Positions 1-13,133 of a stretch of 13,133 nt of DNA are shown here, one piece after another. The notes under the pieces were generated by a model that made no database searches, had not been told where the DNA came from, and saw only the letters and a list, made by a program, of their open reading frames with translations. The position numbers were made by a program, and so were the translations under genes. Source of the DNA: a virus; the UHGV virus genome UHGV-1722641; one strand, written 5' to 3'. Each line of letters starts with the position of its first letter. Positions within the stretch are counted from its first letter, which is position 1.

Positions 1-931
1 GTTCGGCGGCGCTGGCGCGTCCCCGGTTGAACAGTTCACCCGACCAGAACGGGTAGGCGTCGTGCGCCAGCGTGGACGGGGTGGAGAAATAGGTCGAGCG
101 CAGGTGACTCTGTGAGGCCATACCTGATGCCACCTTACGCAGTACCTGAAAATTCGGGATCCAGAAAATCTCGTCGACGTACAGGTCGCCGTTATGGCTC
201 TGCGCGGTGTTGGAGTTGGTGCCGAGAAAAATCAGTTTTGCGCCGTTATTGCCCAGGACAATCGGGTCACCGGTCAGGTCAACGTCAACCAGCCGGGCAA
301 AGGCGATGATGTATTCGCGGAACACATACGCCTGCGTTTTACTGGCCGACAGAAAAATCTGGTTATGACCGGTTTTCAGGGCGCGCAGCAGCGCCTCGCG
401 GGAAAAATAAAACGTCGCGCCAATCTGGCGGGATTTCAGGATATCGCGGATGCGGTGCTCAAGCCCGGCGCGATACCAGTGCAACTGATAGTCGAAAGAC
501 TGCTCAAAGAAAATCTGCTCCAGCTTTTCGATGGCCTCGTCACTGAAAAAATTCTTTTTCGGTTTGCGACGCCCGCCTTTGTTGCGGTTAGCGACGTTCG
601 GATTAAGGTCTGCCTCGTTGCCGGTCTGGCTGTAGCGGTTGACCCGTGCCAGTCGTTCAATCTGGCGTCCCAGCAGGTCAATTTCCTTGAAGTCACCGCC
701 GGTTTTCTGCGGTTTGATGATGAGCTGGGTCAGCCGCGCTTCCAGACTCATTTCGACACGGCTGATGGGGGCAACGCTGTCCCAGCCGTCGCGCTGTTTC
801 CAGCTCTGCACCGTCGGGCGTTTCATCTGCAACATGGCGGCAATCTGCGGCACGGAAAACCCCTGCCAGTACAGCAGCGCCGCCTGACGACGCGGGTCGT
901 GTAAAAGAGTGGTGTCTGTGGTGATGGTCAT
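1..931 (-). CDS. P: Terminase large (ATPase) subunit gpP, N-terminal ~310 codons; 3' end of the gene lies beyond the window start
   Basis: Minus-strand ORF with ATG at 931..929 stays open to position 2. Translation begins MTITTDTTLLHDPRRQAALLYWQGFSVPQIAAM and ends ...FWSGELFNRGRASAAE at the edge, matching my recollection of P2 gpP. It is missing from the ORF track only because it is truncated. It sits divergent from O, as in P2. Confidence 0.9.
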   Translation of the reverse strand, partial: MTITTDTTLLHDPRRQAALLYWQGFSVPQIAAMLQMKRPTVQSWKQRDGWDSVAPISRVEMSLEARLTQLIIKPQKTGGDFKEIDLLGRQIERLARVNRYSQTGNEADLNPNVANRNKGGRRKPKKNFFSDEAIEKLEQIFFEQSFDYQLHWYRAGLEHRIRDILKSRQIGATFYFSREALLRALKTGHNQIFLSASKTQAYVFREYIIAFARLVDVDLTGDPIVLGNNGAKLIFLGTNSNTAQSHNGDLYVDEIFWIPNFQVLRKVASGMASQSHLRSTYFSTPSTLAHDAYPFWSGELFNRGRASAAE

Positions 932-1104
932 GAATACCTCGCCGTGATGAATACACGGCAAGGCTACTGAGTCGCGCCCCGCGATTCGCTAAGGTGCTGT
1001 TGTGTCAGTGATAAGCCATCCGGGACTGATGGCGGAGGATGCGCATCGTCGGGAAACTGATGCCGACATGTGACTCCTCTAATCACTATTCAGGACTCCT
1101 GACA
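932..1104. promoter_or_regulatory. Divergent intergenic region expected to carry the activator-dependent late promoters for P (leftward) and O (rightward)
   Basis: 173-bp gap between divergent P and O starts. In P2 this region holds the Ogr-dependent late promoters, whose upstream element is TGT-N12-ACA. I find only an imperfect TGT-N12-CCA at 1001..1018, so exact sites are not assigned. Confidence 0.45.
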
Positions 1105-1959
1105 ATGGCAAAAAAAGTCTCAAAATTCTTTCGTATCGGCGTTGAGGGTGACACCTGTGACGGGCGTGTCATCAGTGCGCAGGATATTCAGGAAATGGCC
1201 GAAACCTTTGACCCGCGAGTCTATGGTTGCCGCATTAACCTGGAACATCTGCGCGGCATCCTGCCTGACGGTATTTTTAAACGTTATGGCGATGTGGCCG
1301 AACTGAAGGCCGAAAAGATTGACGATGATTCGGCGCTGAAAGGCAAATGGGCGCTGTTTGCGAAAATCACCCCGACCGATGACCTTATCGCGATGAACAA
1401 GGCCGCGCAGAAGGTCTACACCTCAATGGAAATTCAGCCGAACTTTGCCAACACCGGCAAATGTTATCTGGTGGGTCTGGCCGTCACCGATGACCCGGCA
1501 AGCCTCGGCACGGAATACCTGGAATTCTGCCGCACGGCAAAACACAACCCCCTGAACCGCTTCAAATTAAGCCCTGAAAACCTGATTTCAGTGGCAACGC
1601 CTGTTGAGCTGGAATTTGAAGACCTGCCTGAAACCGTGTTCACCGCCCTGACCGAAAAGGTGAAATCCATTTTTGGCCGCAAACAGGCCAGCGATGACGC
1701 CCGTCTGAATGACGTGCATGAAGCGGTGACCGCTGTTGCTGAACATGTGCAGGAAAAACTGAGCGCCACTGAGCAGCGCCTCGCTGAGATGGAAACCGCC
1801 TTTTCCGCACTTAAGCAGGAGGTGACTGACAGGGCGGATGAAACCAGCCAGGCATTCACCCGCCTGAAAAACAGTCTCGACCACACCGAAAGTCTGACCC
1901 AGCAGCGCCGCAGCAAGGCCACCGGCGGTGGCGGTGACGCCCTGATGACGAACTGCTGA
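1105..1959 (+). CDS. O: Capsid scaffolding protein gpO
   Basis: Translation MAKKVSKFFRIGVEGDTCDGRV... (284 aa) matches recalled P2 gpO. The track ORF starts at 1039, but the ATG at 1105 gives the P2-length product. Position is directly upstream of the capsid gene. Confidence 0.9.
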   Translation: MAKKVSKFFRIGVEGDTCDGRVISAQDIQEMAETFDPRVYGCRINLEHLRGILPDGIFKRYGDVAELKAEKIDDDSALKGKWALFAKITPTDDLIAMNKAAQKVYTSMEIQPNFANTGKCYLVGLAVTDDPASLGTEYLEFCRTAKHNPLNRFKLSPENLISVATPVELEFEDLPETVFTALTEKVKSIFGRKQASDDARLNDVHEAVTAVAEHVQEKLSATEQRLAEMETAFSALKQEVTDRADETSQAFTRLKNSLDHTESLTQQRRSKATGGGGDALMTNC

Positions 1960-2017
1960 CCGGCGTCAGTCAGTCCGGGAAAACCTTCACGATTAACCCT
2001 TAATTTCAGGAAAAACT

Positions 2018-3091
2018 ATGCGCCAGGAAACCCGCTTTAAATTTAATGCCTACCTGTCCCGTGTTGCCGAACTGAACGGCATCGACGCCGGTGATGTGTC
2101 GAAAAAATTCACCGTTGAACCGTCGGTCACCCAGACCCTGATGAACACCATGCAGGAGTCCTCTGACTTTCTGACCCGCATCAACATTGTGCCGGTCAGC
2201 GAAATGAAAGGGGAAAAAATTGGTATCGGTGTCACCGGCTCCATCGCCAGCACCACCGACACCGCCGGTGGCACCGAGCGTCAGCCGAAGGACTTCTCGA
2301 AGCTGGCGTCAAACAAGTACGAATGCGACCAGATTAACTTCGATTTTTATATCCGCTACAAAACGCTGGACCTGTGGGCGCGTTATCAGGATTTCCAGCT
2401 CCGTGTCCGTAACGCCATTATCAAACGCCAGTCCCTTGATTTCATCATGGCCGGTTTTAACGGCGTGAAGCGTGCCGAAACCTCTGACCGCAGCAGTAAT
2501 CCGATGCTGCAGGATGTGGCGGTCGGCTGGCTGCAGAAATACCGCAATGAAGCCCCGGCGCGCGTGATGAGCAAGGTTACTGACGAGGAAGGTCACACGA
2601 CCTCTGAGGTCATCCGCGTGGGTAAGGGCGGTGATTATGCCAGCCTCGATGCACTGGTGATGGATGCGACCAACAACCTGATTGAGCCGTGGTATCAGGA
2701 AGACCCTGACCTTGTGGTGATTGTGGGGCGTCAGCTACTGGCGGACAAGTATTTCCCCATCGTCAACAAGGAGCAGGACAACAGCGAAATGCTGGCCGCT
2801 GACGTCATCATCAGCCAGAAACGCATCGGTAACCTGCCGGCGGTACGCGTCCCGTACTTCCCGGCGGATGCGATGCTCATCACGAAGCTGGAAAACCTGT
2901 CCATCTACTACATGGATGACAGCCATCGCCGCGTGATTGTGGAAAACCCGAAACTCGACCGCGTGGAGAACTACGAGTCAATGAACATTGATTACGTGGT
3001 GGAAGACTACGCCGCCGGTTGTCTGGTGGAAAAAATTAAGGTCGGTGATTTCTCCACACCGGCTAAAGCGACCGCAGAGCCGGGAGCGTAA
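2018..3091 (+). CDS. N: Major capsid protein gpN
   Basis: 357-aa ORF MRQETRFKFNAYLSRVAELNGIDAGDVSKKF... with an AGGA ribosome-binding site upstream. Length and sequence match recalled P2 gpN. Confidence 0.92.
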   Translation: MRQETRFKFNAYLSRVAELNGIDAGDVSKKFTVEPSVTQTLMNTMQESSDFLTRINIVPVSEMKGEKIGIGVTGSIASTTDTAGGTERQPKDFSKLASNKYECDQINFDFYIRYKTLDLWARYQDFQLRVRNAIIKRQSLDFIMAGFNGVKRAETSDRSSNPMLQDVAVGWLQKYRNEAPARVMSKVTDEEGHTTSEVIRVGKGGDYASLDALVMDATNNLIEPWYQEDPDLVVIVGRQLLADKYFPIVNKEQDNSEMLAADVIISQKRIGNLPAVRVPYFPADAMLITKLENLSIYYMDDSHRRVIVENPKLDRVENYESMNIDYVVEDYAAGCLVEKIKVGDFSTPAKATAEPGA

Positions 3092-3094
3092 CCG

Positions 3095-3838
3095 ATGACG
3101 AGTCCCGCACAGCGCCACATGATGCGGGTCTCGGCAGCGATGACCGCGCAGCGGGAAGCCGCCCCGCTGCGACATGCAACTGTCTATGAGCAGATGCTGG
3201 TCAAGCTGGCCGCAGACCAGCGCACACTGAAAGCGATTTATTCAAAAGAGCTGAAGGCCGCGAAAAAACGCGAACTGCTGCCGTTCTGGTTGCCGTGGGT
3301 GAACGGCGTGCTGGAGCAGGGCAAAGGTGCACAGGATGACATTCTGATGACGGTCATGCTGTGGCGTCTGGATACCGGCGATATTGCCGGTGCGCTGGAG
3401 ATTGCCCGTTATGCCCTGAAGTACGGTCTGACCATGCCGGGTAAACACCGCCGCACCCCGCCGTACATGTTCACCGAGGAGGTGGCGCTCGCGGCCATGC
3501 GCGCCCACGCTGCCGGTGAGTCTGTGGATACCCGCCTGCTGACGGAGACCCTTGAACTGACCGCCACGGCTGACATGCCTGATGAAGTGCGCGCAAAGCT
3601 GCACAAAATCACCGGTCTGTTTCTGCGTGACGCTGGTGATGCCGCCGGTGCGCTGGCTCACCTGCAACGTGCGACACAGCTCGACTGTCAGGCAGGCGTC
3701 AAAAAAGAGATTGAACGACTGGAGCGGGAGCTGAAACCGAAGCCGGAGCCGCAACCCAAAGCGGCCACCCGTGCCACGCGTAAGACCCGGAGCGTGACAC
3801 CGGCAAAACGTGGACGCCCGAAAAAGAAAGCCAGTTAA
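3095..3838 (+). CDS. M: Terminase small (endonuclease) subunit gpM
   Basis: 247-aa ORF MTSPAQRHMMRVSAAMTAQREAAPL... with a basic C-terminal tail (KRGRPKKKAS). It starts 3 nt after the N stop, as in P2. Confidence 0.9.
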   Translation: MTSPAQRHMMRVSAAMTAQREAAPLRHATVYEQMLVKLAADQRTLKAIYSKELKAAKKRELLPFWLPWVNGVLEQGKGAQDDILMTVMLWRLDTGDIAGALEIARYALKYGLTMPGKHRRTPPYMFTEEVALAAMRAHAAGESVDTRLLTETLELTATADMPDEVRAKLHKITGLFLRDAGDAAGALAHLQRATQLDCQAGVKKEIERLERELKPKPEPQPKAATRATRKTRSVTPAKRGRPKKKAS

Positions 3839-3867
3839 CAACCGAATGCGCCCCGCGCCAGGGCGGC

Positions 3868-3910
3868 ACGCCGGTCAGTGACGGTGAATCACCTGACACT
3901 GCACCGGCGT
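3868..3910 (+). other. GC-rich imperfect dyad symmetry in the M-L intergenic gap
   Basis: acgccggt (3868..3875) pairs with accggcgt (3903..3910); nested cagtg/cactg (3876..3880 / 3896..3900) and ggtga/tcacc (3883..3887 / 3890..3894). No T-tract follows. Confidence 0.3.
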
Positions 3911-3937
3911 CCACCGCCCGACTTTTCAGAGGTAGTC

Positions 3938-4447
3938 ATGATGACGCTGATTATTCCGCGAAAGGAGGCTCCCGTGTCCGGTGAGGGTACGGTGGTCATC
4001 CCGCAACCGGCAGGCGACGAGCCGGTGATTAAAAACACGTTCTTTTTTCCCGATATCGACCCGAAGCGCGTCCGGGAACGTATGCGCCTTGAGCAGACCG
4101 TCGCCCCCGCCCGTCTGCGTGAGGCCATCAAGTCAGGCATGGCTGAAACGAATGCGGAGCTGTACGAGTACCGCGAACAGAAAATTGCTGCCGGTTTTAC
4201 GCGTCTGGCGGACGTCCCGGCGGACGACATCGACGGTGAAAGCATCAAAGTTTTTTACTACGAGCGCGCCGTGTGTGCGATGGCGACCGCGTCGCTTTAT
4301 GAGCGTTATCGCGGCGTGGATGCCAGTGCGAAAGGCGACAAGAAGGCTGACAGCATTGACAGCACCATTGATGAACTGTGGCGGGATATGCGCTGGGCAG
4401 TGGCGCGCATCCAGGACAAGCCGCGCTGCATCGTGAGTCAAATCTGA
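3938..4447 (+). CDS. L: Head completion/stabilisation protein gpL
   Basis: Track ORF 3878..4447; P2-like start MMTLIIPRKEAPVSGEGTVVIP at ATG 3938, with GAGG a few bases upstream, giving 169 aa. Confidence 0.88.
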   Translation: MMTLIIPRKEAPVSGEGTVVIPQPAGDEPVIKNTFFFPDIDPKRVRERMRLEQTVAPARLREAIKSGMAETNAELYEYREQKIAAGFTRLADVPADDIDGESIKVFYYERAVCAMATASLYERYRGVDASAKGDKKADSIDSTIDELWRDMRWAVARIQDKPRCIVSQI

Positions 4448-4650
4448 TGAAGACCTTTGCGCTACAGGGCGACACGCTCGACGCCATTTGTGTCCGGTAT
4501 TACGGGCGCACTGAGGGCGTGGTTGAGACCGTGCTCGCCGCAAATCCGGGACTGGCTGAACTGGGTGCGGTGCTGCCGCACGGCACCGCCGTCGAACTGC
4601 CCGACGTTCAGACCGCGCCCGTGGCTGAAACTGTCAATCTGTGGGAGTAA
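4447..4650 (+). CDS. X: Tail protein gpX
   Basis: 67-aa product MKTFALQGDTLDAICVRYYGRTEGVVETVLAANPGLAELG...; its ATG overlaps the L stop (ATGA at 4445..4449). The track ORF from 4378 is an in-frame upstream extension. Confidence 0.85.
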   Translation: MKTFALQGDTLDAICVRYYGRTEGVVETVLAANPGLAELGAVLPHGTAVELPDVQTAPVAETVNLWE

Positions 4651-4653
4651 CGC

Positions 4654-4935
4654 ATGACAGCAGAAGAAAAAAGCGTCCTGTCGCTTTTCATGATTGGGGT
4701 GCTGATTGTTGTCGGCAAGGTGCTTGCCGGTGGTGAACCCATCACCCCGCGTCTGTTTATCGGGCGCATGTTGCTCGGTGGTTTTGTCTCGATGGTTGCC
4801 GGTGTTGTTCTGGTGCAGTTTCCTGACCTGTCACTGCCTGCGGTGTGCGGTATCGGCTCCATGCTGGGTATCGCCGGTTATCAGGTGATTGAGATTGCCA
4901 TTCAGCGCCGCTTTAAGGGCAGGGGGAAACCGTAA
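4654..4935 (+). CDS. Y: Holin gpY
   Basis: 93-aa hydrophobic protein MTAEEKSVLSLFMIGVLIVVGKVLAGG... with a charged C-terminus (RRFKGRGKP), immediately upstream of the endolysin gene. Confidence 0.88.
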   Translation: MTAEEKSVLSLFMIGVLIVVGKVLAGGEPITPRLFIGRMLLGGFVSMVAGVVLVQFPDLSLPAVCGIGSMLGIAGYQVIEIAIQRRFKGRGKP

Positions 4936-5432
4936 TGCCGGTAATTAACACGCATCAGAATATCGCCGCCTTTCTCGACATGCTGGCCGTGTCCGAAGGG
5001 ACGGCGAATCATCCGCTGACGAAAAACCGGGGCTATGACGTGATAGTCACCGGACTGGACGGGAAGCCGGAAATCTTCACCGACTACAGTGACCACCCGT
5101 TCGCACATGGCCGACCGGCGAAGGTGTTTAACCGTCGCGGTGAAAAATCCACGGCCTCCGGTCGCTATCAGCAGCTTTACCTGTTCTGGCCGCATTACCG
5201 CAAACAGCTTGCCCTGCCGGATTTCAGTCCGTTGTCACAGGACAGACTTGCCATTCAGTTGATCCGCGAACGCGGTGCACTGGATGACATCCGGGCGGGA
5301 CGCATTGAGCGCGCCATTTCACGCTGTCGCAATATCTGGGCGTCCCTGCCGGGTGCCGGTTACGGTCAGCGTGAGCATTCACTGGAAAAACTGGTCACCG
5401 TCTGGCGTACCGCTGGCGGCGTACCGGCTTAA
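4935..5432 (+). CDS. K: Endolysin (lysozyme) gpK
   Basis: 165-aa ORF MPVINTHQNIAAFLDMLAVSEGTANHPLTKNRGYDVIVTG..., matching recalled P2 gpK. The start overlaps the Y stop by one base (TAATG). Confidence 0.9.
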   Translation: MPVINTHQNIAAFLDMLAVSEGTANHPLTKNRGYDVIVTGLDGKPEIFTDYSDHPFAHGRPAKVFNRRGEKSTASGRYQQLYLFWPHYRKQLALPDFSPLSQDRLAIQLIRERGALDDIRAGRIERAISRCRNIWASLPGAGYGQREHSLEKLVTVWRTAGGVPA

Positions 5433-5446
5433 ACGGAGTAAACACC

Positions 5447-5872
5447 ATGAAGAAATTATCCCTTTCACTGATGCTGAACGTGTCGCTGGCGCTGATGCTG
5501 GCACTGTCCCTGATTTACCCGCAGAGCGTGGCCGTCAGTTTTGTCGCTGCCTGGGCGATTCTGGCGACGGTTATCTGTGTGGTTGCCGGTGGTGTCGGCG
5601 TGTATGCCACTGAGTATGTGCTGGAACGCTACGGGCGGGAGCTGCCGCCGGAATCGCTGGCCGTGAAGATTGTCACGTCGCTGTTTTTGCAGCCGGTGCC
5701 GTGGCGCAGACGGGCGGCGGCTCTGGTGGTGATGGTGGCGACGTTTATCTCGCTGGTCGCTGCCGGGTGGATTTTTACCGCGCTGATTTATCTTGTGGCG
5801 TCGGTGTTCTTCCGGCTGATTCGTACGGCCTGCCGTCAGCGTTTTGAGGGGCGGGAACCATGTCAAAGCTGA
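5447..5872 (+). CDS. lysA: LysA, membrane protein of the lysis cassette (putative antiholin)
   Basis: 141-aa highly hydrophobic protein MKKLSLSLMLNVSLALMLALSLIYPQ... with several predicted transmembrane segments and a GGAG ribosome-binding site upstream. Position after K matches P2. Confidence 0.85.
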   Translation: MKKLSLSLMLNVSLALMLALSLIYPQSVAVSFVAAWAILATVICVVAGGVGVYATEYVLERYGRELPPESLAVKIVTSLFLQPVPWRRRAAALVVMVATFISLVAAGWIFTALIYLVASVFFRLIRTACRQRFEGREPCQS

Positions 5873-6285
5873 TGATTGTGCTGGTCGTGTTGTTATCGCT
5901 GGCGGTGGCGTGGCTGTTTCTGGCGAAGCATGAAAACGCCAGCCTGCGCGCCTCACTGGACAGGGCGAACAGCGTCGCCAGCGGGCAGCAGACGACCATC
6001 ACCATGCTGAAAAATCAGCTTCATGTTGCGCTCACCAGGGCAGACAAAAACGAGCTGGCGCAGGTGGCACTGCGTCAGGAACTGGAGAACGCCGCGAAGC
6101 GTGAAGCACAGCGCGAGAAAACCATCACGAGGTTACTTAATGAAAACGAGGATTTTCGCCGCTGGTACGGTGCTGACCTGCCTGATGCTGTGCGCCGGTT
6201 GCACCAGCGCCCGGCCTGCGCCGACGCCAGTGATTGTCCACAACGCCTGCCCGAAAGTGAGCCTTTGCCCGATGCCGGGCAGTGA
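5860..6285 (+). CDS. lysB: LysB, Rz-like inner-membrane spanin
   Basis: 141-aa ORF with an N-terminal transmembrane segment (MSKLMIVLVVLLSLAVAWLFLA) followed by a charged, likely coiled-coil region. Start overlaps the lysA 3' end. Confidence 0.85.
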   Translation: MSKLMIVLVVLLSLAVAWLFLAKHENASLRASLDRANSVASGQQTTITMLKNQLHVALTRADKNELAQVALRQELENAAKREAQREKTITRLLNENEDFRRWYGADLPDAVRRLHQRPACADASDCPQRLPESEPLPDAGQ

Positions 6286-6430
6286 CCCGGAGACGAACGG
6301 CGATTTAAGTGCCGATATCCGGCAGCTTGAGAACGCGCTGGCACGCTGTGCCAGCCAGGTAAAAATGATTAAACACTGTCAGGACGAAAACGATGCTCAA
6401 ACCCGACAGCCTGCGCAGGGCGCTGACTGA
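6140..6430 (+). CDS. lysC: LysC, Rz1-like outer-membrane lipoprotein spanin, in the +1 frame relative to lysB
   Basis: Internal ATG at 6140 of track ORF 6023..6430, with ACGAGG a few bases upstream. Product MKTRIFAAGTVLTCLMLCAGCTSARPAPTPV... has a signal peptide, a lipobox-like CAGC and a Pro-rich mature region. It overlaps the lysB 3' end and the R start. Confidence 0.75.
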   Translation: MKTRIFAAGTVLTCLMLCAGCTSARPAPTPVIVHNACPKVSLCPMPGSDPETNGDLSADIRQLENALARCASQVKMIKHCQDENDAQTRQPAQGAD

Positions 6431-6860
6431 TGCCGTCACGGTGCTGAAAACTAACCCCGATATGCTGCGGATATTCGTGGATAACGGGAGTATTGCCTCC
6501 ACACTGGCGGCGTCGTTGTCATTCGAAAAGCGTTACACGCTCAATGTGATTGTGACCGACTTTACCGGTGATTTTGACCTGCTCATCGTGCCGGTGCTGG
6601 CGTGGCTGCGGGAAAATCAGCCCGACATCATGACCACCGACGCAGGCCAGAAAAAGGGCTTCACGTTTTATGCGGACATCAACAATGACAGCAGCTTTGA
6701 TATCAGCATCAGCCTGATGCTGACCGAGCGCACGCTGGTCAGTGAGGTGGACGGCGCGCTGCATGTGAAGAATATCCCGGAACCTCCGCCGCCGGAGCCG
6801 GTCACCCGCCCGATGGAGCTGTATATCAATGGCGAACTGGTGAGCAAGTGGGATGAATGA
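6393..6860 (+). CDS. R: Tail completion protein gpR
   Basis: 155-aa ORF MLKPDSLRRALTDAVTVLKTNPDMLRIFVDNGS..., matching recalled P2 gpR. Confidence 0.88.
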   Translation: MLKPDSLRRALTDAVTVLKTNPDMLRIFVDNGSIASTLAASLSFEKRYTLNVIVTDFTGDFDLLIVPVLAWLRENQPDIMTTDAGQKKGFTFYADINNDSSFDISISLMLTERTLVSEVDGALHVKNIPEPPPPEPVTRPMELYINGELVSKWDE

Positions 6861-7305
6861 GTTTAAGCGTTTTGAAGACCGGCTGACCGGACTGATTGAA
6901 TCGCTGTCACCGTCAGGGCGTCGGCGACTGAGTGCCGAACTGGCGAAACGTCTGCGGCAGAGTCAGCAGCGCCGGGTGATGGCACAGAAAGCCCCGGACG
7001 GCACACCCTACGCGCCACGCCAGCAGCAGAGCGCCAGAAAAAAGACCGGTCGTGTTAAGCGAAAAATGTTTGCGAAACTTATCACCAGTCGTTTTTTGCA
7101 TATCCGCGCCAGCCCGGAACAGTCATCAATGGAGTTTTACGGCGGGAAGTCACCGAAAATCGCCAGTGTGCATCAGTTCGGTCTGTCGGAAGAAAACCGG
7201 AAAGACGGTAAGAAAATTGATTATCCGGCGCGTCCTCTGCTCGGCTTTACCGGTGAGGATGTGCAGATGATTGAAGAGATTATCCTGGCTCACCTCGACC
7301 GTTAG
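6853..7305 (+). CDS. S: Tail completion protein gpS
   Basis: 150-aa ORF MNEFKRFEDRLTGLIESLSPSGRRRLSAELAKRL...; overlaps the R 3' end by 8 nt. Confidence 0.88.
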   Translation: MNEFKRFEDRLTGLIESLSPSGRRRLSAELAKRLRQSQQRRVMAQKAPDGTPYAPRQQQSARKKTGRVKRKMFAKLITSRFLHIRASPEQSSMEFYGGKSPKIASVHQFGLSEENRKDGKKIDYPARPLLGFTGEDVQMIEEIILAHLDR

Positions 7306-7371
7306 TTGTGCCATTCCTGACACCTCATCGTCACATTGCCGCCGGTATGACCCGGCGGCATCCTTCCCGTT
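7306..7371 (+). promoter_or_regulatory. Putative late promoter region upstream of V, with TGT-N12-ACC at 7307..7324 and a GC-rich hairpin at 7337..7360
   Basis: 66-bp S-V gap. The TGT...ACC element is one mismatch from the P2 late-promoter dyad TGT-N12-ACA. A 9-bp perfect inverted repeat tgccgccgg / ccggcggca with a 6-nt loop is followed by a pyrimidine-rich tccttcccgtt. Confidence 0.35.
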
Positions 7372-8007
7372 ATGAACACTCTCGCAAATATTCAGGAACT
7401 CGCGCGCGCACTGCGCAACATGATTCGCACCGGCCTTGTCGTCGAAACCGACCTTAACGCCGGTCGCTGCCGTGTGCAGACCGGCGGCATGTGCACCGAC
7501 TGGCTTCAGTGGCTGACCCATCGCGCCGGACGTTCGCGCACATGGTGGGCACCTTCCGTGGGGGAACAGGTGCTGATTCTGGCCGTGGGCGGTGAACTCG
7601 ACACGGCGTTCGTTCTGCCGGGGATTTATTCCGGCGATAACCCCGCGCCGTCTGCGTCGGCGGATGCCCTGCATATCCGTTTCCCTGACGGGGCGGTGAT
7701 TGAGTATGAACCCGAAACCAGTGCACTCACGGTAAGCGGAATTAAAACGGCCAGCGTGACGGCTTCTGATTCTGTTACTGCCACGGTGCCGGTGGTCATG
7801 GTGAAAGCATCAACCCGCGTCACCCTGGACACACCGGAGGTGGTCTGCACCAACAGGCTGATTACCGGCACGCTGGAAGTGCAGAAGGGCGGGACGATGC
7901 GCGGCAACATTGAACACACCGGCGGTGAACTCTCATCAAACGGTAAGGTACTGCATACCCATAAACACCCCGGCGACAGCGGCGGCACAACCGGGAGTCC
8001 TCTATGA
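7372..8007 (+). CDS. V: Baseplate spike / assembly protein gpV
   Basis: 211-aa ORF MNTLANIQELARALRNMIRTGLVVETDLNAGRCRVQTGG..., matching recalled P2 gpV. Confidence 0.9.
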   Translation: MNTLANIQELARALRNMIRTGLVVETDLNAGRCRVQTGGMCTDWLQWLTHRAGRSRTWWAPSVGEQVLILAVGGELDTAFVLPGIYSGDNPAPSASADALHIRFPDGAVIEYEPETSALTVSGIKTASVTASDSVTATVPVVMVKASTRVTLDTPEVVCTNRLITGTLEVQKGGTMRGNIEHTGGELSSNGKVLHTHKHPGDSGGTTGSPL

Positions 8008-8351
8008 CAGCGCGTTATCTCGGAATGAATCGCAGTGATGGCCTGACTGTCACTGACCTTGAGCATATCAGCCAGAGTATCGGCGATATCCTGCGCACAC
8101 CGGTCGGCTCACGGGTGATGCGTCGTGATTACGGCTCGTTGCTGGCGTCAATGATTGACCAGCCGCAGACCCCGGCGCTTGAGTTGCAGATTAAGGTCGC
8201 CTGTTACATGGCGGTGCTGAAATGGGAACCCCGCGTCACCCTGTCATCCGTCACCACGGCGCGCAGCTTTGACGGGCGAATGACGGTCACGTTAACCGGC
8301 CAGCACAACGACACCGGCCAGCCACTTTCGTTAACCATCCCTGTGAGTTGA
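8004..8351 (+). CDS. W: Baseplate wedge protein gpW
   Basis: 115-aa ORF MTARYLGMNRSDGLTVTDLEHISQSIGDILRTPVGSRV...; ATGA overlap with the V stop and GGGAG upstream. Confidence 0.9.
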   Translation: MTARYLGMNRSDGLTVTDLEHISQSIGDILRTPVGSRVMRRDYGSLLASMIDQPQTPALELQIKVACYMAVLKWEPRVTLSSVTTARSFDGRMTVTLTGQHNDTGQPLSLTIPVS

Positions 8352-8355
8352 AACC

Positions 8356-9264
8356 ATGCCGATTATCGACCTGAACCAGCTACCCGCACCGGATGTGGTC
8401 GAGGAGCTGGACTTTGAAACCATTCTCGCCGAACGCAAGGCGACACTGATTTCCCTTTACCCGGAAGACCAGCAGGAGGCGGTCGCCCGTACCCTGACGC
8501 TGGAATCTGAGCCTCTCGTCAAACTGCTGGAGGAAAATGCTTATCGTGAGCTTATCTGGCGTCAGCGTGTGAATGAGGCCGCACGGGCGGTGATGCTGGC
8601 CTGTGCCGCCGGTAATGACCTTGATGTGATTGGTGCCAATTACAACACCACGCGCCTGATTATCACCCCGGCAGATGATTCGACTATCCCGCCGACACCG
8701 GCAGTGATGGAGTCTGACACCGATTATCGTCTGCGTATTCAGCAGGCGTTTGAGGGCTTAAGCGTCGCCGGGTCGGTGGGAGCCTATCAGTATCATGGTC
8801 GCAGTGCCGACGGGCGTGTCGCGGATATCTCTGTCACCAGTCCGTCTCCGGCCTGCGTCACCATCTCTGTGCTGTCACGTGAAAATAACGGTGTCGCATC
8901 CGAAGACCTGCTGGCGGTGGTGCGTAACGCCCTTAATGGCGAGGACGTCAGGCCGGTGGCCGACCGCGTGACCGTGCAGTCTGCCGCCATCGTTGAATAC
9001 CAGATAAACGCCACGCTTTACCTTTACCCTGGTCCCGAAAGCGAACCCATCCGCGCTGCCGCCGTGAAAAAACTGGAAGCGTATATCACGGCACAGCACC
9101 GGCTGGGGCGCGACATCCGTCTGTCTGCCATTTATGCCGCTTTGCATGTGGAAGGCGTGCAGCGTGTCGAACTGGCTGCACCACTGGCCGACATCGTGCT
9201 CAACAGTACGCAGGCGTCTTTCTGTACCGAATACCGCGTCGTGACCGGAGGCTCGGATGAGTGA
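8356..9264 (+). CDS. J: Baseplate protein gpJ
   Basis: 302-aa ORF MPIIDLNQLPAPDVVEELDFETILAERKATLISLYPEDQQ..., matching recalled P2 gpJ. Confidence 0.9.
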   Translation: MPIIDLNQLPAPDVVEELDFETILAERKATLISLYPEDQQEAVARTLTLESEPLVKLLEENAYRELIWRQRVNEAARAVMLACAAGNDLDVIGANYNTTRLIITPADDSTIPPTPAVMESDTDYRLRIQQAFEGLSVAGSVGAYQYHGRSADGRVADISVTSPSPACVTISVLSRENNGVASEDLLAVVRNALNGEDVRPVADRVTVQSAAIVEYQINATLYLYPGPESEPIRAAAVKKLEAYITAQHRLGRDIRLSAIYAALHVEGVQRVELAAPLADIVLNSTQASFCTEYRVVTGGSDE

Positions 9265-9787
9265 TTCGCGCCTGCTGCCGACCGGCTCATCACTGCTTGA
9301 AGTCGCTGCCGCAAAAGCCTGTGCGGAAATTGAAAAAACGCCGGTCAGTATTCGTGAGCTGTGGAACCCGGACACCTGCCCGGCAAATCTGCTGCCGTGG
9401 CTGGCGTGGGCGTTTTCGGTCGACAGGTGGGATGAAAAGTGGCCGGAAGCGACAAAACGCGCCGTTATCCGCGATGCCTATTTCATCCACTGTCATAAAG
9501 GCACTATAGGCGCAATCCGGCGTGTGGTGGAGCCGCTCGGCTATCTCATCAACGTGACGGAGTGGTGGGAAAACAGTGACCCGCCCGGCACCTTCCGGCT
9601 TGATATTGGTGTACTGGAAAGCGGTATCACAGAGGCAATGTATCAGGAAATGGAACGGCTGATTGCTGATGCCAAACCTGCAAGCCGCCACCTTATTGGC
9701 CTGAACATTACCCGGGACATTCCCGGCTACCTGTTCGCCGGTGGTGTGGCTTACGACGGCGATGTAATTACGGTTTACCCCGGATAA
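9257..9787 (+). CDS. I: Baseplate protein gpI
   Basis: 176-aa ORF MSDSRLLPTGSSLLEVAAAKACAEIEKTPVSIRELWNPD...; GGAGG upstream; overlaps the J 3' end by 8 nt. Confidence 0.9.
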   Translation: MSDSRLLPTGSSLLEVAAAKACAEIEKTPVSIRELWNPDTCPANLLPWLAWAFSVDRWDEKWPEATKRAVIRDAYFIHCHKGTIGAIRRVVEPLGYLINVTEWWENSDPPGTFRLDIGVLESGITEAMYQEMERLIADAKPASRHLIGLNITRDIPGYLFAGGVAYDGDVITVYPG

Positions 9788-9797
9788 GTGAGGAATA

Positions 9798-11795
9798 ATG
9801 AGCACAAAATTCAGAACCGTTATCACCACTGCCGGTGCAGCAAAGCTGGCAGCGGCAACCGCGCCGGGAGGGCGGAAGGTCAACATTACCACGATGGCCG
9901 TCGGGGATGGCGGTGGTAAATTGCCTGTCCCGGATGCCGGACAGACCGGGCTTATCCATGAAGTCTGGCGACATGCGCTGAACAAAATCAGCCAGGACAA
10001 ACGAAACAGTAATTATATTATCGCAGAGCTGGTTATTCCGCCGGAGGTGGGCGGTTTCTGGATGCGTGAGCTTGGCCTGTACGATGATGCGGGAACATTA
10101 ATTGCCGTGGCGAACATGGCCGAAAGTTATAAGCCAGCTCTTGCCGAAGGCTCAGGGCGTTCGCAGACCTGTCGCATGGTCATCATCGTCAGCAGTGTGG
10201 CCTCAGTGGCGCTGACCATTGACACCACAACGGTGATGGCGACGCAGGATTACGTTGATGACAAAATTGCAGAGCATGAACAGTCACGACGTCACCCGGA
10301 CGCCTCGCTGACCGCAAAAGGTTTTACTCAGTTAAGCAATGCGACCAACAGCACGTCTGAAACACTGGCCGCAACGCCGAAAGCGGTTAAGGCCGCATAT
10401 GACCTTGCTAACGGGAAATATACTGCGCAGGATGCCACCACAGCGCGAAAAGGTCTTGTCCAGCTCAGTAGTGCCACCAACAGCACGTCTGAAACGCTCG
10501 CCGCAACACCAAAAGCGGTAAAGGCAGCATATGACCTTGCTAACGGGAAATACACTGCACAGGACGCCACCACAGCGCGAAAAGGTCTTGTCCAGCTCAG
10601 TAGCGCCACCAACAGCGATTCTGAAACGCTTGCGGCAACGCCAAAGGCGGTTAAGACAGCGTATGACCTTGCTAACGGAAAATACACTGCACAGGACGCC
10701 ACCACGGCGCGGAAAGGTCTTGTTCAGCTCAATAGTGCCATCAACAGCGATTCTGAAACGCTGGCTGCAACACCAAAAGCGGTGAAGTCTGCCTATGACA
10801 ATGCTGAAAAACGTCTTCAGAAAGATCAAAATGGCGCGGATATTCCTGATAAAAGATTATTCCTGCGCAATATTGGAGCAACAAATTCAACAACCATGTC
10901 TTTTAGTGGTGGTACAGGATGGTTCAGGCTGGCAACTGTAACCATGCCACAGGCCAGTTCCGTGGTTTACATAAGTCTGATTGGTGGTGCTGGATATAAT
11001 GTTAACTCCCCTATGCAGGCTGGTATATCTGAACTTGTTCTTCGTGCGGGAAATGGAAATCCAAAAGGTCTTACTGGTGCGTTATGGCGACGGACATCGG
11101 TTGGATTTACTAATTTTGCATGGGTGAATACATCCGGTGATACCTATGATGTTTATGTTGAAATAGGTAATTACGCCACAGGTGTTAATATTCAGTGGGA
11201 TTATACCAGTAACGCCAGCGTAACGATTCATACATCACCAACTTATACAGCGAATAAACCAACAGGTCTTACAGATGGAACTGTATATGTAATTTACAGT
11301 TCGCACATTAAACCGACTGCTGCTGATGTTGGGGCGTTGTCATTATCTGGAGGTCAATTGAATGGTGCACTGGGCATCGGAACATCCAGTGTTCTTGGTG
11401 GTAACTCAATTGTTTTGGGTGATAATGACACGGGCTTTAAACAAAATGGTGACGGTAATCTGGATGTTTATGCTAATAACGTTCATGTTATGCGCTTTGT
11501 CTCCGGTAGCATTCAAAGTAATAAAACCATAAATATTACGGGTCGTGTTAATCCCACAGATTACGGTAACTTTGATTCCCGCTATGTCCGGGATATCCGG
11601 CTTGGTGGTGCTGCCACATACAAACCTGCGAACAATGGCATGACATGGACACATCAGGCACCGTCCGGGTGTGTATATTCCGGCATTATTATTCAGGATA
11701 CCGGCTCAAACTCTGCCGATAACATTGGTGGCGTATATTACAGACCGGTGCAGAAATACATTAACGGGACATGGTATAACGTGGCGCAGGTATAA
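9798..11795 (+). CDS. H: Tail fiber protein gpH, mosaic: P2-like N-terminus, expanded internal repeats, divergent low-GC C-terminal receptor-binding region
   Basis: 665-aa ORF with GTGAGGA upstream. N-terminus MSTKFRTVITTAGAAKLAAATAPG... resembles P2 gpH; the middle holds about 3.7 tandem 44-aa repeats (KGLVQLSSATNSTSETLAATPKAVKAAYDLANGKYTAQDATTAR). The C-terminal half is low GC but keeps the conserved patch VLGDNDTGFKQNGDGNLDVYAN and the C-terminal QKYINGTWYNVAQV. Confidence 0.88.
   Translation: MSTKFRTVITTAGAAKLAAATAPGGRKVNITTMAVGDGGGKLPVPDAGQTGLIHEVWRHALNKISQDKRNSNYIIAELVIPPEVGGFWMRELGLYDDAGTLIAVANMAESYKPALAEGSGRSQTCRMVIIVSSVASVALTIDTTTVMATQDYVDDKIAEHEQSRRHPDASLTAKGFTQLSNATNSTSETLAATPKAVKAAYDLANGKYTAQDATTARKGLVQLSSATNSTSETLAATPKAVKAAYDLANGKYTAQDATTARKGLVQLSSATNSDSETLAATPKAVKTAYDLANGKYTAQDATTARKGLVQLNSAINSDSETLAATPKAVKSAYDNAEKRLQKDQNGADIPDKRLFLRNIGATNSTTMSFSGGTGWFRLATVTMPQASSVVYISLIGGAGYNVNSPMQAGISELVLRAGNGNPKGLTGALWRRTSVGFTNFAWVNTSGDTYDVYVEIGNYATGVNIQWDYTSNASVTIHTSPTYTANKPTGLTDGTVYVIYSSHIKPTAADVGALSLSGGQLNGALGIGTSSVLGGNSIVLGDNDTGFKQNGDGNLDVYANNVHVMRFVSGSIQSNKTINITGRVNPTDYGNFDSRYVRDIRLGGAATYKPANNGMTWTHQAPSGCVYSGIIIQDTGSNSADNIGGVYYRPVQKYINGTWYNVAQV
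10317..10803 (+). repeat. Tandem 132-bp direct repeats (about 3.7 copies) inside gpH, encoding a 44-aa fiber repeat
   Basis: Unit boundaries read directly at 10317, 10449, 10581 and 10713, in frame with H. Units differ at scattered positions, mostly third-codon, but are clearly the same sequence. The minus-strand track ORFs 10328..10705 and 10332..10829 are mirror artefacts of this repeat. Confidence 0.9.
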
Positions 11796-11798
11796 TTT

Positions 11799-12326
11799 AT
11801 GCAGCATTTGATAAATATAACGGCGGGTAATCCAAAAACGGTTGAACAATATCAATTGACAAAGGACTTTGATGTTGTCTGGTTTTTTTCAGAAGATGGT
11901 AAGAACTGGTACGAAGAACAAAAGTATTTTGCTGATGACACGATAAAAATAGCGTACGACAAAGATAATATTATCCGCTATGTGGAAAAGGATGTGACAG
12001 CTATCAGACCGGATGGATTAAGTGTTGTTGAAGTGGCGGATATTACTGCTAACCGACGGGCGGACATTTCAGGGGGCTGGATGTTTAAGGACGGCAAAGT
12101 GATTAAACGCATTTATACGGCAGAGGAATTGCAGCAGCAGGCAGAAATTCGGAAAGCCAGACTTCTTGCAGATGCTGAATCCGTGATTTTGCCGCTGGAG
12201 CGCGCGGTCAGACTGAACATGGCAACAGATGAGGAGCGTAGCCGACTGGAAGCATGGGAACGCTACAGCGTTCTGGTCAGTCGTGTGGATCCTGCAAATC
12301 CTGAATGGCCGGAAATGCCGCAATAA
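11799..12326 (+). CDS. G: Tail fiber assembly chaperone gpG
   Basis: 175-aa ORF starting 3 nt after the H stop. The C-terminal part (...[37 protein letters not shown]...EWPEMPQ) is the conserved fiber-assembly domain; the N-terminal half is low GC like the 3' half of H. Confidence 0.85.
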
Positions 12327-12595
12327 GTTGTATGAACTCTGGTGTGAGCTTACATATCTATGGCACAGAGTAAAGCCTAATCTGACAGTCCGCTCTGTGC
12401 CAGAAGCGGACGTTGCGGGACGTCAGATATCTAAAAAAACTAATGGTCCGCTTGGATAGATACTTACACAGGATGCAATAAAGAGTTTCTATTTCTTTGT
12501 GGTAGCAAACTTTGATTTCTGAAGGATAATACCTCCAATAAGTTGAAATCACATATATCGCTAAAGACTCTATACAACAACCAAGAGAGACCGCA
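12327..12595 (+). promoter_or_regulatory. AT-rich non-coding spacer upstream of the cargo ORF; likely carries its own promoter
   Basis: 269 bp with no convincing ORF, a strong composition drop relative to the phage core, a -10-like GATAAT at 12525..12530 and TTGAAA at 12543..12548. I could not pair a convincing -35/-10 by eye. Confidence 0.3.
12361..12402 (+). other. 10-bp perfect inverted repeat (stem-loop) just downstream of the G stop, at the core/cargo boundary
   Basis: tggcacagag (12361..12370) and ctctgtgcca (12393..12402) with a 22-nt loop; followed by a GGACGT direct repeat (12408..12413 and 12418..12423), the palindrome AGATATCT (12425..12432) and an A7 run. No U-tract, so not a classical intrinsic terminator. 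Confidence 0.3.
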
Positions 12596-13133
12596 ATGGA
12601 TAGTGTCAGTAGTGTTGAGCGTTTAAGAACAAAAGCTTTTTATCAGTTGCTTGTGGATAGGCTTGGAACTGAGGCCTGGGCTGCTCGCAAAGCTGCATAT
12701 TTCAAGCGCATAAGAGAGAAGGAGGCTAAGTTTAACATCAATCTGCCGATAGAGCCCCAGCTCTTCATACCAGCAGAAGATGACATCGACTGGTACATTC
12801 TGGCGTCGTATCTGTCTCATGATTTTCCATATAGTGATGCTACTTACAGCAGCAGACGTATCTACCCCTATGCTATGGCCATCGGAGCTGTTGCAGACCA
12901 GCTTCGCAAAGTCCCATACGTCGATGATGTTCTGGACAAAATGCTAGCAAATAACAATAAACCAGAAACTCAAATTTTTGAGCTGCTGACGGCATCGTTC
13001 TACCTAAAGAACGGCTATGAGGTTGCCTTCATCCCAGAAAGCAGCATTGTTTGGCCCGATGGAAAGACCAAAAAATCACCGGATATGCTTGTCAAGTTAG
13101 GTGATCTGGAGTTCTACGTTGAGTGCAAAAGGT
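12596..13133 (+). CDS. Hypothetical cargo protein, 5'-partial view (179 codons, open to window end); possible PD-(D/E)xK-like nuclease motif; candidate accessory/defence gene
   Basis: ATG at 12596 preceded by a purine-rich stretch (AGAGAGA) 6 nt upstream; no stop before 13133. The line 12601..12660 counts 22/60 GC against 41/60 for the first 60 bases of the window. Translation MDSVSSVERLRTKAFYQLLVDRLG...ETQIFELLTASFYLKNGYEVAFIPESSIVWPDGKTKKSPDMLVKLGDLEFYVECKR has an acidic helix, PD, then E-C-K 14 residues later. No resemblance to any P2 structural protein I know. Confidence 0.6.
   Translation, partial: MDSVSSVERLRTKAFYQLLVDRLGTEAWAARKAAYFKRIREKEAKFNINLPIEPQLFIPAEDDIDWYILASYLSHDFPYSDATYSSRRIYPYAMAIGAVADQLRKVPYVDDVLDKMLANNNKPETQIFELLTASFYLKNGYEVAFIPESSIVWPDGKTKKSPDMLVKLGDLEFYVECKR

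Follow-up and report, generated by a model that had tools for sequence, protein, structure and literature searches.

The question raised by this locus is whether an AT-rich stretch at 10810-12060, covering the 3′ half of the tail fibre gene H and the 5′ half of the adjoining gene G, is a host-range cassette that moved as one unit and gave the phage a receptor specificity different from that of P2, as the first-pass annotation proposed. We analysed the window, which is the whole 13,133-nt stretch of the virus genome UHGV-1722641. In our view, it is highly probable that the window comes from a P2-like (Peduovirus) phage or prophage, whose late operon it contains, and that the flagged part is the distal, receptor-recognising end of H together with the chaperone gene G, a modular patchwork exchanged at linkers. 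This is an ordinary swappable P2-like fibre end with its assembly-chaperone gene, of a kind that is already known.

Directly 5′ of H, Baseplate_J and Tail_P2_I are encoded, and the gene order is that of the P2 record (late operon V-W-J-I-H-G); P2 is 97.5% identical to the window at the nucleotide level over 8298-10523. The N-terminus of H consists of a Pfam tail-collar domain (PF12571, aa 1-151, E 1.8e-58), and its shaft contains four copies of the fibre repeat PF03406 (E 1.8e-80). Gene G starts 3 nt past the stop codon of H, harbors a Caudo_TAP domain (PF02413, E 6.3e-34), and matches Mu U (5yvq_B) along its full length (phmmer E 2.3e-82). The mid part of H has matches in the fibres of Mu-like, T-even, FelixO1-like, T5-like and ST64B phages. 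These homologies and the clustered breakpoints described below support the view that a P2-type fibre ends here in a variable receptor-binding part, which is exchanged horizontally and accompanied by a chaperone of the Tfa family.

The H protein is nearly identical to P2 gpH up to aa ~242 (nt 10523), and beyond this point the identity is 10-40% outside the conserved motifs. The patches that are kept are VLGDNDTGFKQNGDG.LDVYAN, GNFDSRYV.D.RLG and the last 14 aa, QKYINGTWYNVAQV, which agrees with the earlier description of H as divergent save for short patches. The divergence had been placed just past the repeat array, at the GC drop; it is real, but it begins ~290 nt upstream of the drop, within the array. 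A global alignment of H with P2 gpH is 50% identical and not collinear over its full length, and such non-collinearity is usual within the family, in which H spans 621-919 aa (91 loci). In contrast, G aligns with P2 G collinearly from end to end (75% aa identity). The PHROG families split G at aa ~92/101, one covering aa 1-92 and another aa 101-175, and G has a variable N-terminal and a conserved C-terminal part, in agreement with the structure of Mu S-U (5YVQ) and with the two-domain Tfa model, which PMC9608196 describes with a citation of North et al. 2019. The low GC does continue into the N-domain of G (~11799-12083, 0.38) and ends at the C-domain (~12099-12323, 0.52). However, the halves are 68% and 84% identical to those of P2 G; therefore, what had been described as a C-terminal half that is conserved again amounts to a modest difference.

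The low GC of the stretch itself is evident. The GC content is 0.574 at 1-10809, 0.423 at 10810-12060, 0.523 at 12061-12326, and 0.436 at 12327-13133, where the cargo region downstream of G is low again. The lowest value of all 1251-nt sliding windows in the sequence (0.419) belongs to the one starting at 10794; those located before 9500 have a mean of 0.577, an sd of 0.019 and a minimum of 0.534, so the trough at 10810-12060 lies more than 8 sd below the mean. Likelihood change points were placed at ~10712, ~12052 and ~12426. The trough is uneven, with the terminal tip (11574-11792) at 0.50. However, the low GC does not set this phage apart from P2. The equivalent parts of P2 have GC contents of 0.562, 0.448, 0.370 and 0.504, and the means over 91 P2-like loci are 0.558, 0.456, 0.382 and 0.513 (sd <= 0.014). 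Because P2 and all of the sampled P2-like relatives have the same profile, AT-richness is not specific to UHGV-1722641. The low GC of H and G is a family trait and no mark of import relative to P2, and a GC trough in these genes should not be taken as a sign of recent, phage-specific acquisition.

The boundaries of exchange were located by comparison with related loci, in panels comprising the best 80 matches of each query, out of 363-538 relatives, in a single viral collection (IMG/VR), so rare chimeras could be missed. The breakpoints cluster at 10840-10859, where backbone similarity is lost in 46 loci, at 11310 (11 loci), at 11560-11579 (63 loci), and at a 3′ end of 12390-12419, where the similarity blocks of 78 loci stop. 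Upstream of these clusters, the backbone blocks of related loci stop at the repeat-unit boundaries 10390, 10520, 10660 and 10790. The nearest relative changes along the region: it is phage 12474III up to 10846 (97.9%, compared with P2 only up to 10523), vB_YpM_5 over 10818-11605, P2_4C9 over 11310-12419 (94.6%, beginning exactly at 11310), and fiAA91-ss over 11557-12410. The resulting features are collected in Table 1.

Table 1. Coordinates of the fibre and chaperone features in the window.
Feature	Position	Strand	Basis
Gene H, tail fibre protein, 665 aa	9798..11795	+	ORF, Pfam domains, J and I homologues upstream as in P2
Tandem repeat array, 132 nt x 3.5 copies; encodes shaft repeats, closes the GC-normal P2 backbone	10340..10799	+	TRF
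Junction J1, linker motif LQKDQNGADIPDK(RL), 'QNGADIP'; 5′ edge of the exchangeable region	10815..10859	+	Backbone similarity stops there
Mid domain, aa ~355-504, compact all-beta module	10860..11309	+	AlphaFold model, nt/aa similarity
Neck, opening with junction J2 (KPTAADVGAL, 11310-11339)	11310..11573	+	P2_4C9 identity, breakpoints
Junction J3 (GNFDSRYV), ahead of the tip	11565..11588	+	Similarity breaks, motif shared by different contexts
Distal tip, aa 593-665, presumed receptor-binding domain	11574..11795	+	Breakpoints, Mu S homology
Gene G, tail fibre assembly protein, 175 aa	11799..12326	+	Pfam, phmmer, P2 G identity
Conserved trailer past G, 3′ boundary of the tip+G exchange unit	12327..12419	+	Similarity ends, GC change point 12426

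The J1 motif is shared with Mu S 151-175 and also occurs at the start of the variable module in the Mu-like phage vB_YpM_5, just inside the gix-encoded FIQNLGLQE. No part of H is more AT-rich than the mid domain that follows (GC 0.415). AlphaFold predicts only strands at aa ~362-499 (pLDDT 70-90), whereas the rest of the monomer model of the H C-terminal region is of low quality (mean pLDDT of the model, 59.9). A Foldseek comparison of this model with the PDB returned weak matches only, to tailspike-like proteins (WceF 6tgf, TM 0.33), and no fold was assigned. At the nucleotide level, the domain is 93% identical to the Mu-like Yersinia phages vB_YpM_5/6 and 91% identical to the 108-kb phage CMS-2020a; at the protein level, it is 30-61% identical to fibres of T-even, FelixO1-like, T5-like and ST64B phages. 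Only four of the 80 loci having the same G contain it. In the neck, the first of the patches shared with P2, also given as VLGDNDTGFKQNGDGNLDVYAN, occupies 11412-11477 (aa 539-560), and a blastn patch with P2 spans 11394-11476; the neck also shows a weak match to the gp37-trimerisation family PF20744 and a match to the S16 gp37 fragment 6f45_A. At J3, the (F/S)DSRYV motif is preceded by at least four distinct sequence contexts. The tip beyond it is homologous to the Mu S tip that is bound by Tfa (5yvq_A 424-503, E 7.2e-16), and phiTE has a homologous C-terminus in its short tail fibre (E 8.5e-19).

On the 3′ side, similarity to P2, P2_4C9, fiAA91-ss and E. coli prophages stops at 12410-12419. 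Scans downstream of G found no terminator-like site and a single promoter-like match, which is fewer than expected by chance; the folded trailer (12324-12450) did not exceed shuffled sequences in stability (z = -0.9), and Rfam yielded no match at E <= 1 within 10700-13133. Only short ORFs and one + strand cargo ORF lie 3′ of G; for the latter, PADLOC gave no match and Pfam gave only a sub-threshold hint of an AHJR-like nuclease.

The proposal that the tip and the chaperone domain recognising it move together is borne out in an enlarged form. The tip type agrees with the type of the G N-domain in 78/78 and 80/80 cases (158 IMG/VR and reference loci), although the two panels concerned were ranked on whole-G similarity and are thus biased against G chimeras. 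In a third panel, the best 80 loci ranked by the N-half of G alone, every locus (80/80) has both the window-type tip and the window-type C-half of G. No chimeras between the two halves of G were found in any panel, including the third, and no breakpoint was seen in mid-G or near 12060 in the sampled loci; therefore, 12060 is a compositional and not a recombinational boundary. The smallest unit that is always inherited as one consists of the 73 C-terminal residues of H and all of G (11574-~12415), so that it is the whole of G, not its N-terminal domain alone, that travels with the tip.

Nevertheless, the class of the chaperone is not strictly tied to that of the tip. In five loci, a tip of the window class (70-72% identity) is paired with a G N-domain of the P2/Mu class (90-93% identical to P2). 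Phage 899 was considered as a combination of a window-like tip and a P2-type G and was rejected; this phage has a P2-type tip, and its 70% match falls within the neck. The five mixed loci suggest that the N-domain of Tfa may be promiscuous across tip classes, and co-inheritance may therefore reflect the adjacency of the two genes rather than their functional specificity. We regard this explanation as a possible but rather unlikely one. If the N-domain is promiscuous, tips could be swapped, in nature or by engineering, with the chaperone left unchanged.

A different view is that one low-GC cassette was imported as a unit, that its ends are the GC boundaries, and that the part of the chaperone moving with the tip is limited to the N-terminal domain. 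The change points at ~10712 and ~12052 fit ends at 10810 and 12060, and the N-half of G is less conserved than its C-half relative to P2. However, the same GC profile is found in P2 and the 91 relatives, the GC is patchy inside the region, the breakpoints divide the region internally and continue past G with none near 12060, and the mid domain is present in so few of the loci that share the tip and G. A single cassette is thus improbable, and we consider this reading to be largely refuted by the observations.

We find it very improbable that the AT-richness is a by-product of the amino acids of a fibre, namely, beta structure rich in Asn, Thr, Ser, Gly, Tyr and Ile, and says nothing about foreign origin or exchange. 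The amino acids do contribute in the N-half of G, for which the expected GC is 0.488 compared with ~0.55-0.59 elsewhere. However, synonymous positions show the drop as well: GC3 falls from 0.552 in the 5′ part of H to 0.275 at 10810-11310, is 0.401 at 11311-11795, and within G rises from 0.368 in the N-half to 0.517 in the C-half. Moreover, the observed GC is 0.10-0.14 below that expected for the same amino acids with the codon usage of the backbone (mid domain and neck, 0.415-0.417 observed vs. ~0.55 expected), and over 788 nt (10818-11605, spanning the mid domain and neck) there is 92% identity with Sv′ of vB_YpM_5, a variable fibre module that lies within the invertible segment of that phage and adjoins its invertase gene. 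Least probable of all is that an invertible host-range segment of the Mu/P1 type (Gin/Cin/Hin system) left the region behind as a remnant fixed in one orientation: the similarity to Sv′ does start just inside the inverted repeat of that phage, but the search of the window revealed no gix-like site within 3 mismatches, no inverted-repeat partner of the junction and no invertase ORF, an unrelated cargo ORF instead of opposite-strand fibre and chaperone genes follows G, and the P2-family fibres of the panel share the simple H-G layout.

According to the favoured interpretation as a patchwork, the distal part of H and G consist of small modules arranged in a row, with short linkers between them that are conserved across fibre types, namely, QNGADIP, KP(T/S)A(A/G)DVGA, (N)FDSRYV(R/K)D(I/V)RLG and the C-terminal motif shared with P2. 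In this interpretation, the patches serve as homology anchors at which recombination swaps pieces among P2-, Mu-, P1-, T-even- and FelixO1-type phages, and it is this exchange that keeps the region richer in AT than the P2 backbone throughout the family. Homology with the Mu S-U complex suggests that the N-domain of G binds the distal tip and that the conserved helical C-domain drives trimerisation. The tip, in turn, would set the surface receptor that is recognised, most likely LPS. P2 has been reported to bind LPS (PMC9594776), and in a P2-like fibre, host range has been mapped experimentally to a 31-aa stretch near the C-terminus (PMC5285337). The last 73 aa of H are 40% identical to the P2 tip, from which a receptor specificity unlike that of P2, as originally suggested, is a plausible and reasonable inference, as is a host range different from that of P2. 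It is also possible, though rather unlikely, that the beta-rich mid domain, which is shuttled widely, acts as an additional, lateral site for glycan binding, which would give the fibre two specificities. The practical value of the analysis is modest and lies in the exact module boundaries for this fibre type (10815-10859, 11310, ~11574 and ~12415) and in the identification of the co-inherited piece (the last 73 aa of H with G), both of which could help to plan the swapping of fibres in R-type tailocins or P2-based phages and to predict host range from prophage sequences.

Compared with P2, the window has H and G in the same operon position after V-W-J-I, a near-identical N-terminal 242 aa of H, the same three motifs, the same GC profile and a collinear G. 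The window H has four shaft repeats, whereas that of P2 has two; the mid region of P2 is entirely different, and the tip and the G N-domain are considerably diverged. The tip+G cassettes of P2_4C9, 11W and fiAA91-ss are 94-95% identical to that of the window at the nucleotide level, but the mid regions of P2_4C9 and fiAA91-ss are longer and unlike that of the window (their H proteins have 919 and 692 aa, respectively), and the cargo past G is also different. The E. coli KOr024 prophage and similar genomes carry the whole of H-G at 98.9% identity, annotated as tail fibre and assembly protein; in all, 2,628 E. coli genomes have a match. With Mu S-U (PDB 5YVQ), the window shares the full-length match of U and G, the homology of the tip to S 424-503 and the QNGADIP linker. 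However, it has no invertase, gix site or S′/U′ genes of a Mu-like invertible G segment, and the N-terminal attachment domain of its H is P2-type, not Mu-type. The T-even distal long tail fibre gp37 and the FelixO1-like, T5-like and ST64B fibres have the mid beta domain and the gp37-type neck motif in common with the window. The fibre chaperones of T-even phages are gp38 and gp57A. All four groups differ from the window in fibre architecture, chaperones and attachment domains, and what they share with it are individual modules.

The window comes from a P2-like (Peduovirus) phage or prophage and covers its late-gene block; the megablast matches include P2, Wphi, fiAA91-ss, pro147, 12474II-V and many further Peduovirus records. 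The entire pair of the tail fibre gene H and the assembly chaperone gene G is found at 98.8-98.9% identity in several complete E. coli genomes, e.g., strain KOr024, and these copies already bear the annotations tail fibre protein and tail fibre assembly protein. The H-G region is a textbook case.

Tail genes of the window and the parts of H
Feature	Coordinates	Pfam
Baseplate J	8356-9264	Baseplate_J
I	9257-9787	Tail_P2_I
H, 665 aa	9798-11795	Tail-collar + fibre repeats
H shaft repeat array	10340-10799	
H mid domain	10860-11309	
H neck	11310-11573	
H tip	11574-11795	
G, 175 aa	11799-12326	Caudo_TAP

The first-pass annotation had proposed that 10810-12060, which covers the 3′ half of H and the 5′ half of G, is one exchangeable low-GC cassette. 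This proposal of a single unit limited by GC steps is contradicted by the breakpoints in a panel of 160 IMG/VR loci (the best 80 for the window G and the best 80 for P2 G) plus reference phages, with a similarity block defined as at least 88% identity to the window. The 5′ blocks stop at 10840-10859 (46 loci) or at repeat-unit boundaries. The block with G has its 5′ end at 11310 (11 loci) or 11560-11579 (63 loci) and its 3′ end at 12390-12419 (78 loci). These positions coincide with the short motifs QNGADIP, KPTAADVGAL and GNFDSRYV, and the same tip is joined at (F/S)DSRYV by at least four unrelated upstream contexts. Among the 80 loci sharing the window G, the last 73 aa of H are present in all (92-100% identity), the mid domain in just four, and the window's neck (at least 93% identity) in fewer than one quarter. 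The constantly co-travelling unit is 11574 to ~12415. Chimeras combining the G N-half of one type with the C-half of the other numbered zero in the panel ranked by whole-G similarity. Because this ranking is a possible source of bias, the test was repeated with loci ranked by the G N-half alone, and 80 of 80 had the window-type G C-half (at least 93.6% nt identity) and tip (at least 87%). With no mid-G chimera in either panel, 12060 is a compositional and not a recombinational boundary inside G. Over 78 loci, the window-class tip hardly varies in its 72 residues from DSRYV through to its end, with one or two variant positions per variant; the two nucleotide sub-variants (at least 90% and ~88% identical to the window) both stand behind G N-halves that are 97-98% identical.

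The low-GC stretch itself is real. GC is 0.574 in 1-10809, 0.423 in 10810-12060 and 0.523 in 12061-12326, and it is low again 3′ of G (0.436 in 12327-13133). The lowest-GC 1251-nt window of the entire sequence begins at 10794, windows of this size upstream of 9500 have a mean of 0.577 (sd 0.019), and likelihood change points fall at ~10712, ~12052 and ~12426. Within the trough GC is uneven, reaching 0.50 in the tip (11574-11792). An explanation purely by amino-acid content is contradicted by GC3, with values of 0.552 (5′ part of H), 0.275 (10810-11310), 0.401 (11311-11795) and 0.368 (G N-half), and by a codon-usage control, in which the mid domain and neck have an observed GC of 0.415-0.417 versus ~0.55 expected for the same amino acids under backbone codon usage; the drop is larger than amino-acid content accounts for. 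The trough had also been taken to distinguish the window from P2. In P2, GC is 0.562 over the first 1012 nt of H and 0.448 over its remainder, then 0.370 and 0.504 over the N- and C-halves of G, and the equivalent means of 91 P2-like loci, restricted to those with complete H, are 0.558, 0.456, 0.382 and 0.513 (sd at most 0.014). The AT-rich trough is a family trait of the H-G region, P2 included, and therefore it is no mark of an acquisition separating the window phage from P2.

The nearest relative changes segment by segment: phage 12474III to 10846 (97.9% identity), a module of the Mu-like Yersinia phage vB_YpM_5 over 10818-11605 (92.4%), P2_4C9 over 11310-12419 (94.6%) and fiAA91-ss over 11557-12410 (94.3%). 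In vB_YpM_5, a Muvirus of Yersinia pestis (matching module at 2979-3766 of locus L165), the counterpart is the variable fibre part within an invertible segment adjoining a hin/gin invertase gene, and the match starts at LQK(N/D)QNGADIP, immediately inside the inverted repeat after the gix-encoded FIQNLGLQE. This indicates that Mu-like and P2-like phages exchanged the module recently. A fossil invertible segment is contradicted, with no gix-like sites, inverted repeats, invertase or opposite-strand fibre genes found in the window.

Fibres of T-even, FelixO1-like, T5-like and ST64B phages share the mid domain (aa ~355-504) with 30-61% aa identity, and one 108-kb E. coli phage has it at 91% nt identity. 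A search of 5.8 billion proteins placed the H C-terminal region behind varied N-termini in thousands of E. coli and Salmonella "phage tail proteins". One 376-aa E. coli protein (P0028), annotated as baseplate assembly protein V (PF04717), covers 79% of this query at 98% identity, which probably reflects a gene fusion or an error in assembly or annotation. A monomer AlphaFold model of the region is confident only in the mid domain, a compact all-beta unit with weak fold matches in the PDB. The neck weakly matches the gp37 trimerisation family and also matches the S16 gp37 fragment 6f45. For the last ~70 aa, matches are the Mu S tip of 5YVQ and, in the phiTE short tail fibre, the unmodelled C-terminus. 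The analysis shows a modular layout: junctions cluster at conserved linkers, and modules are common to different phage families at nt identities of up to 92-95%. The modules are probably shuffled by homologous recombination at these linkers, an idea that reportedly underlies the 1992 work of Haggard-Ljungquist et al.

Tip type equals G N-domain type in 78 of 78 and 80 of 80 panel loci, and tip and G are shown to be co-inherited. The earlier suggestion that tip and chaperone move together is thus upheld, except that the whole of G travels and that the N-domain coupling is mixed in five loci. Pairwise tip identity correlates almost equally with the G N-domain and C-domain (Spearman 0.80 and 0.73), a pattern expected from simple adjacency. 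In the five loci, a window-class tip (70-72% identity) stands beside a G N-domain of the P2/Mu class, whose identity is 90-93% with P2 but only 63-67% with the window; this suggests that chaperone-tip specificity is relaxed; the fit may be looser than first assumed. These loci are the IMG/VR contigs L146, L149, L151, L153 and L162, and the chaperone terminus of L149 resembles Mu U (ANPEWPQKPE). G aligns with Mu U (5yvq_B) over its full length (E 2.3e-82). By analogy with the Mu structure, specific co-adaptation of the G N-domain to the tip is plausible; the N-domain would bind the tip and the C-domain would promote trimerisation (PMC9608196).

Downstream of G, in the position of P2 Z/fun, an ORF on the plus strand (12596-13133, GC 0.45) encodes at least 179 aa and runs past the window end. 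Its product opens with MDSVSSVERLRTKAFY and has a PD...E.K-like motif (PDMLVKLGDLEFYVECKR) at the end. In Escherichia phage 899 the homologue is a hypothetical protein of 461 aa, and a DUF3800 protein comes after it. PADLOC gave no match, and a sub-threshold Pfam hint of an AHJR-like nuclease (E 0.0066) is the sole family signal. This ORF may be a cargo gene, of an uncharacterised defence or nuclease type, that occupies the variable slot between G and FI.

Compared with P2 gpH, the window H is near-completely identical to aa ~242 and 10-40% identical beyond, except for the motifs VLGDNDTGFKQNGDG.LDVYAN, GNFDSRYV.D.RLG and the terminal QKYINGTWYNVAQV. The divergence from P2 outside short patches was therefore described correctly, although its onset is at nt 10523, within the repeat array and not just after it. 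The array has 3.5 copies of a 132-nt (44-aa) shaft repeat, four units versus two in P2 H. Similarity blocks in related loci stop at its unit boundaries (10390, 10520, 10660 and 10790), and across 91 loci H is between 621 and 919 aa long, so that the number of repeats and the modules inserted are both free to vary. The C-half of G, said to be conserved again, is indeed closer to P2 than the N-half (84% vs. 68%), but G is collinear with P2 G throughout (75%). Reading the region as the fibre's host-range end was correct. The tip would set receptor choice; in the P2-like phage P88, swapping a 31-aa stretch near the fibre C-terminus altered the host range (PMC5285337), and P2 has been reported to adsorb to LPS (PMC9594776). 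Because the window tip is only 40% identical to the P2 tip, a receptor specificity unlike that of P2 is likely.
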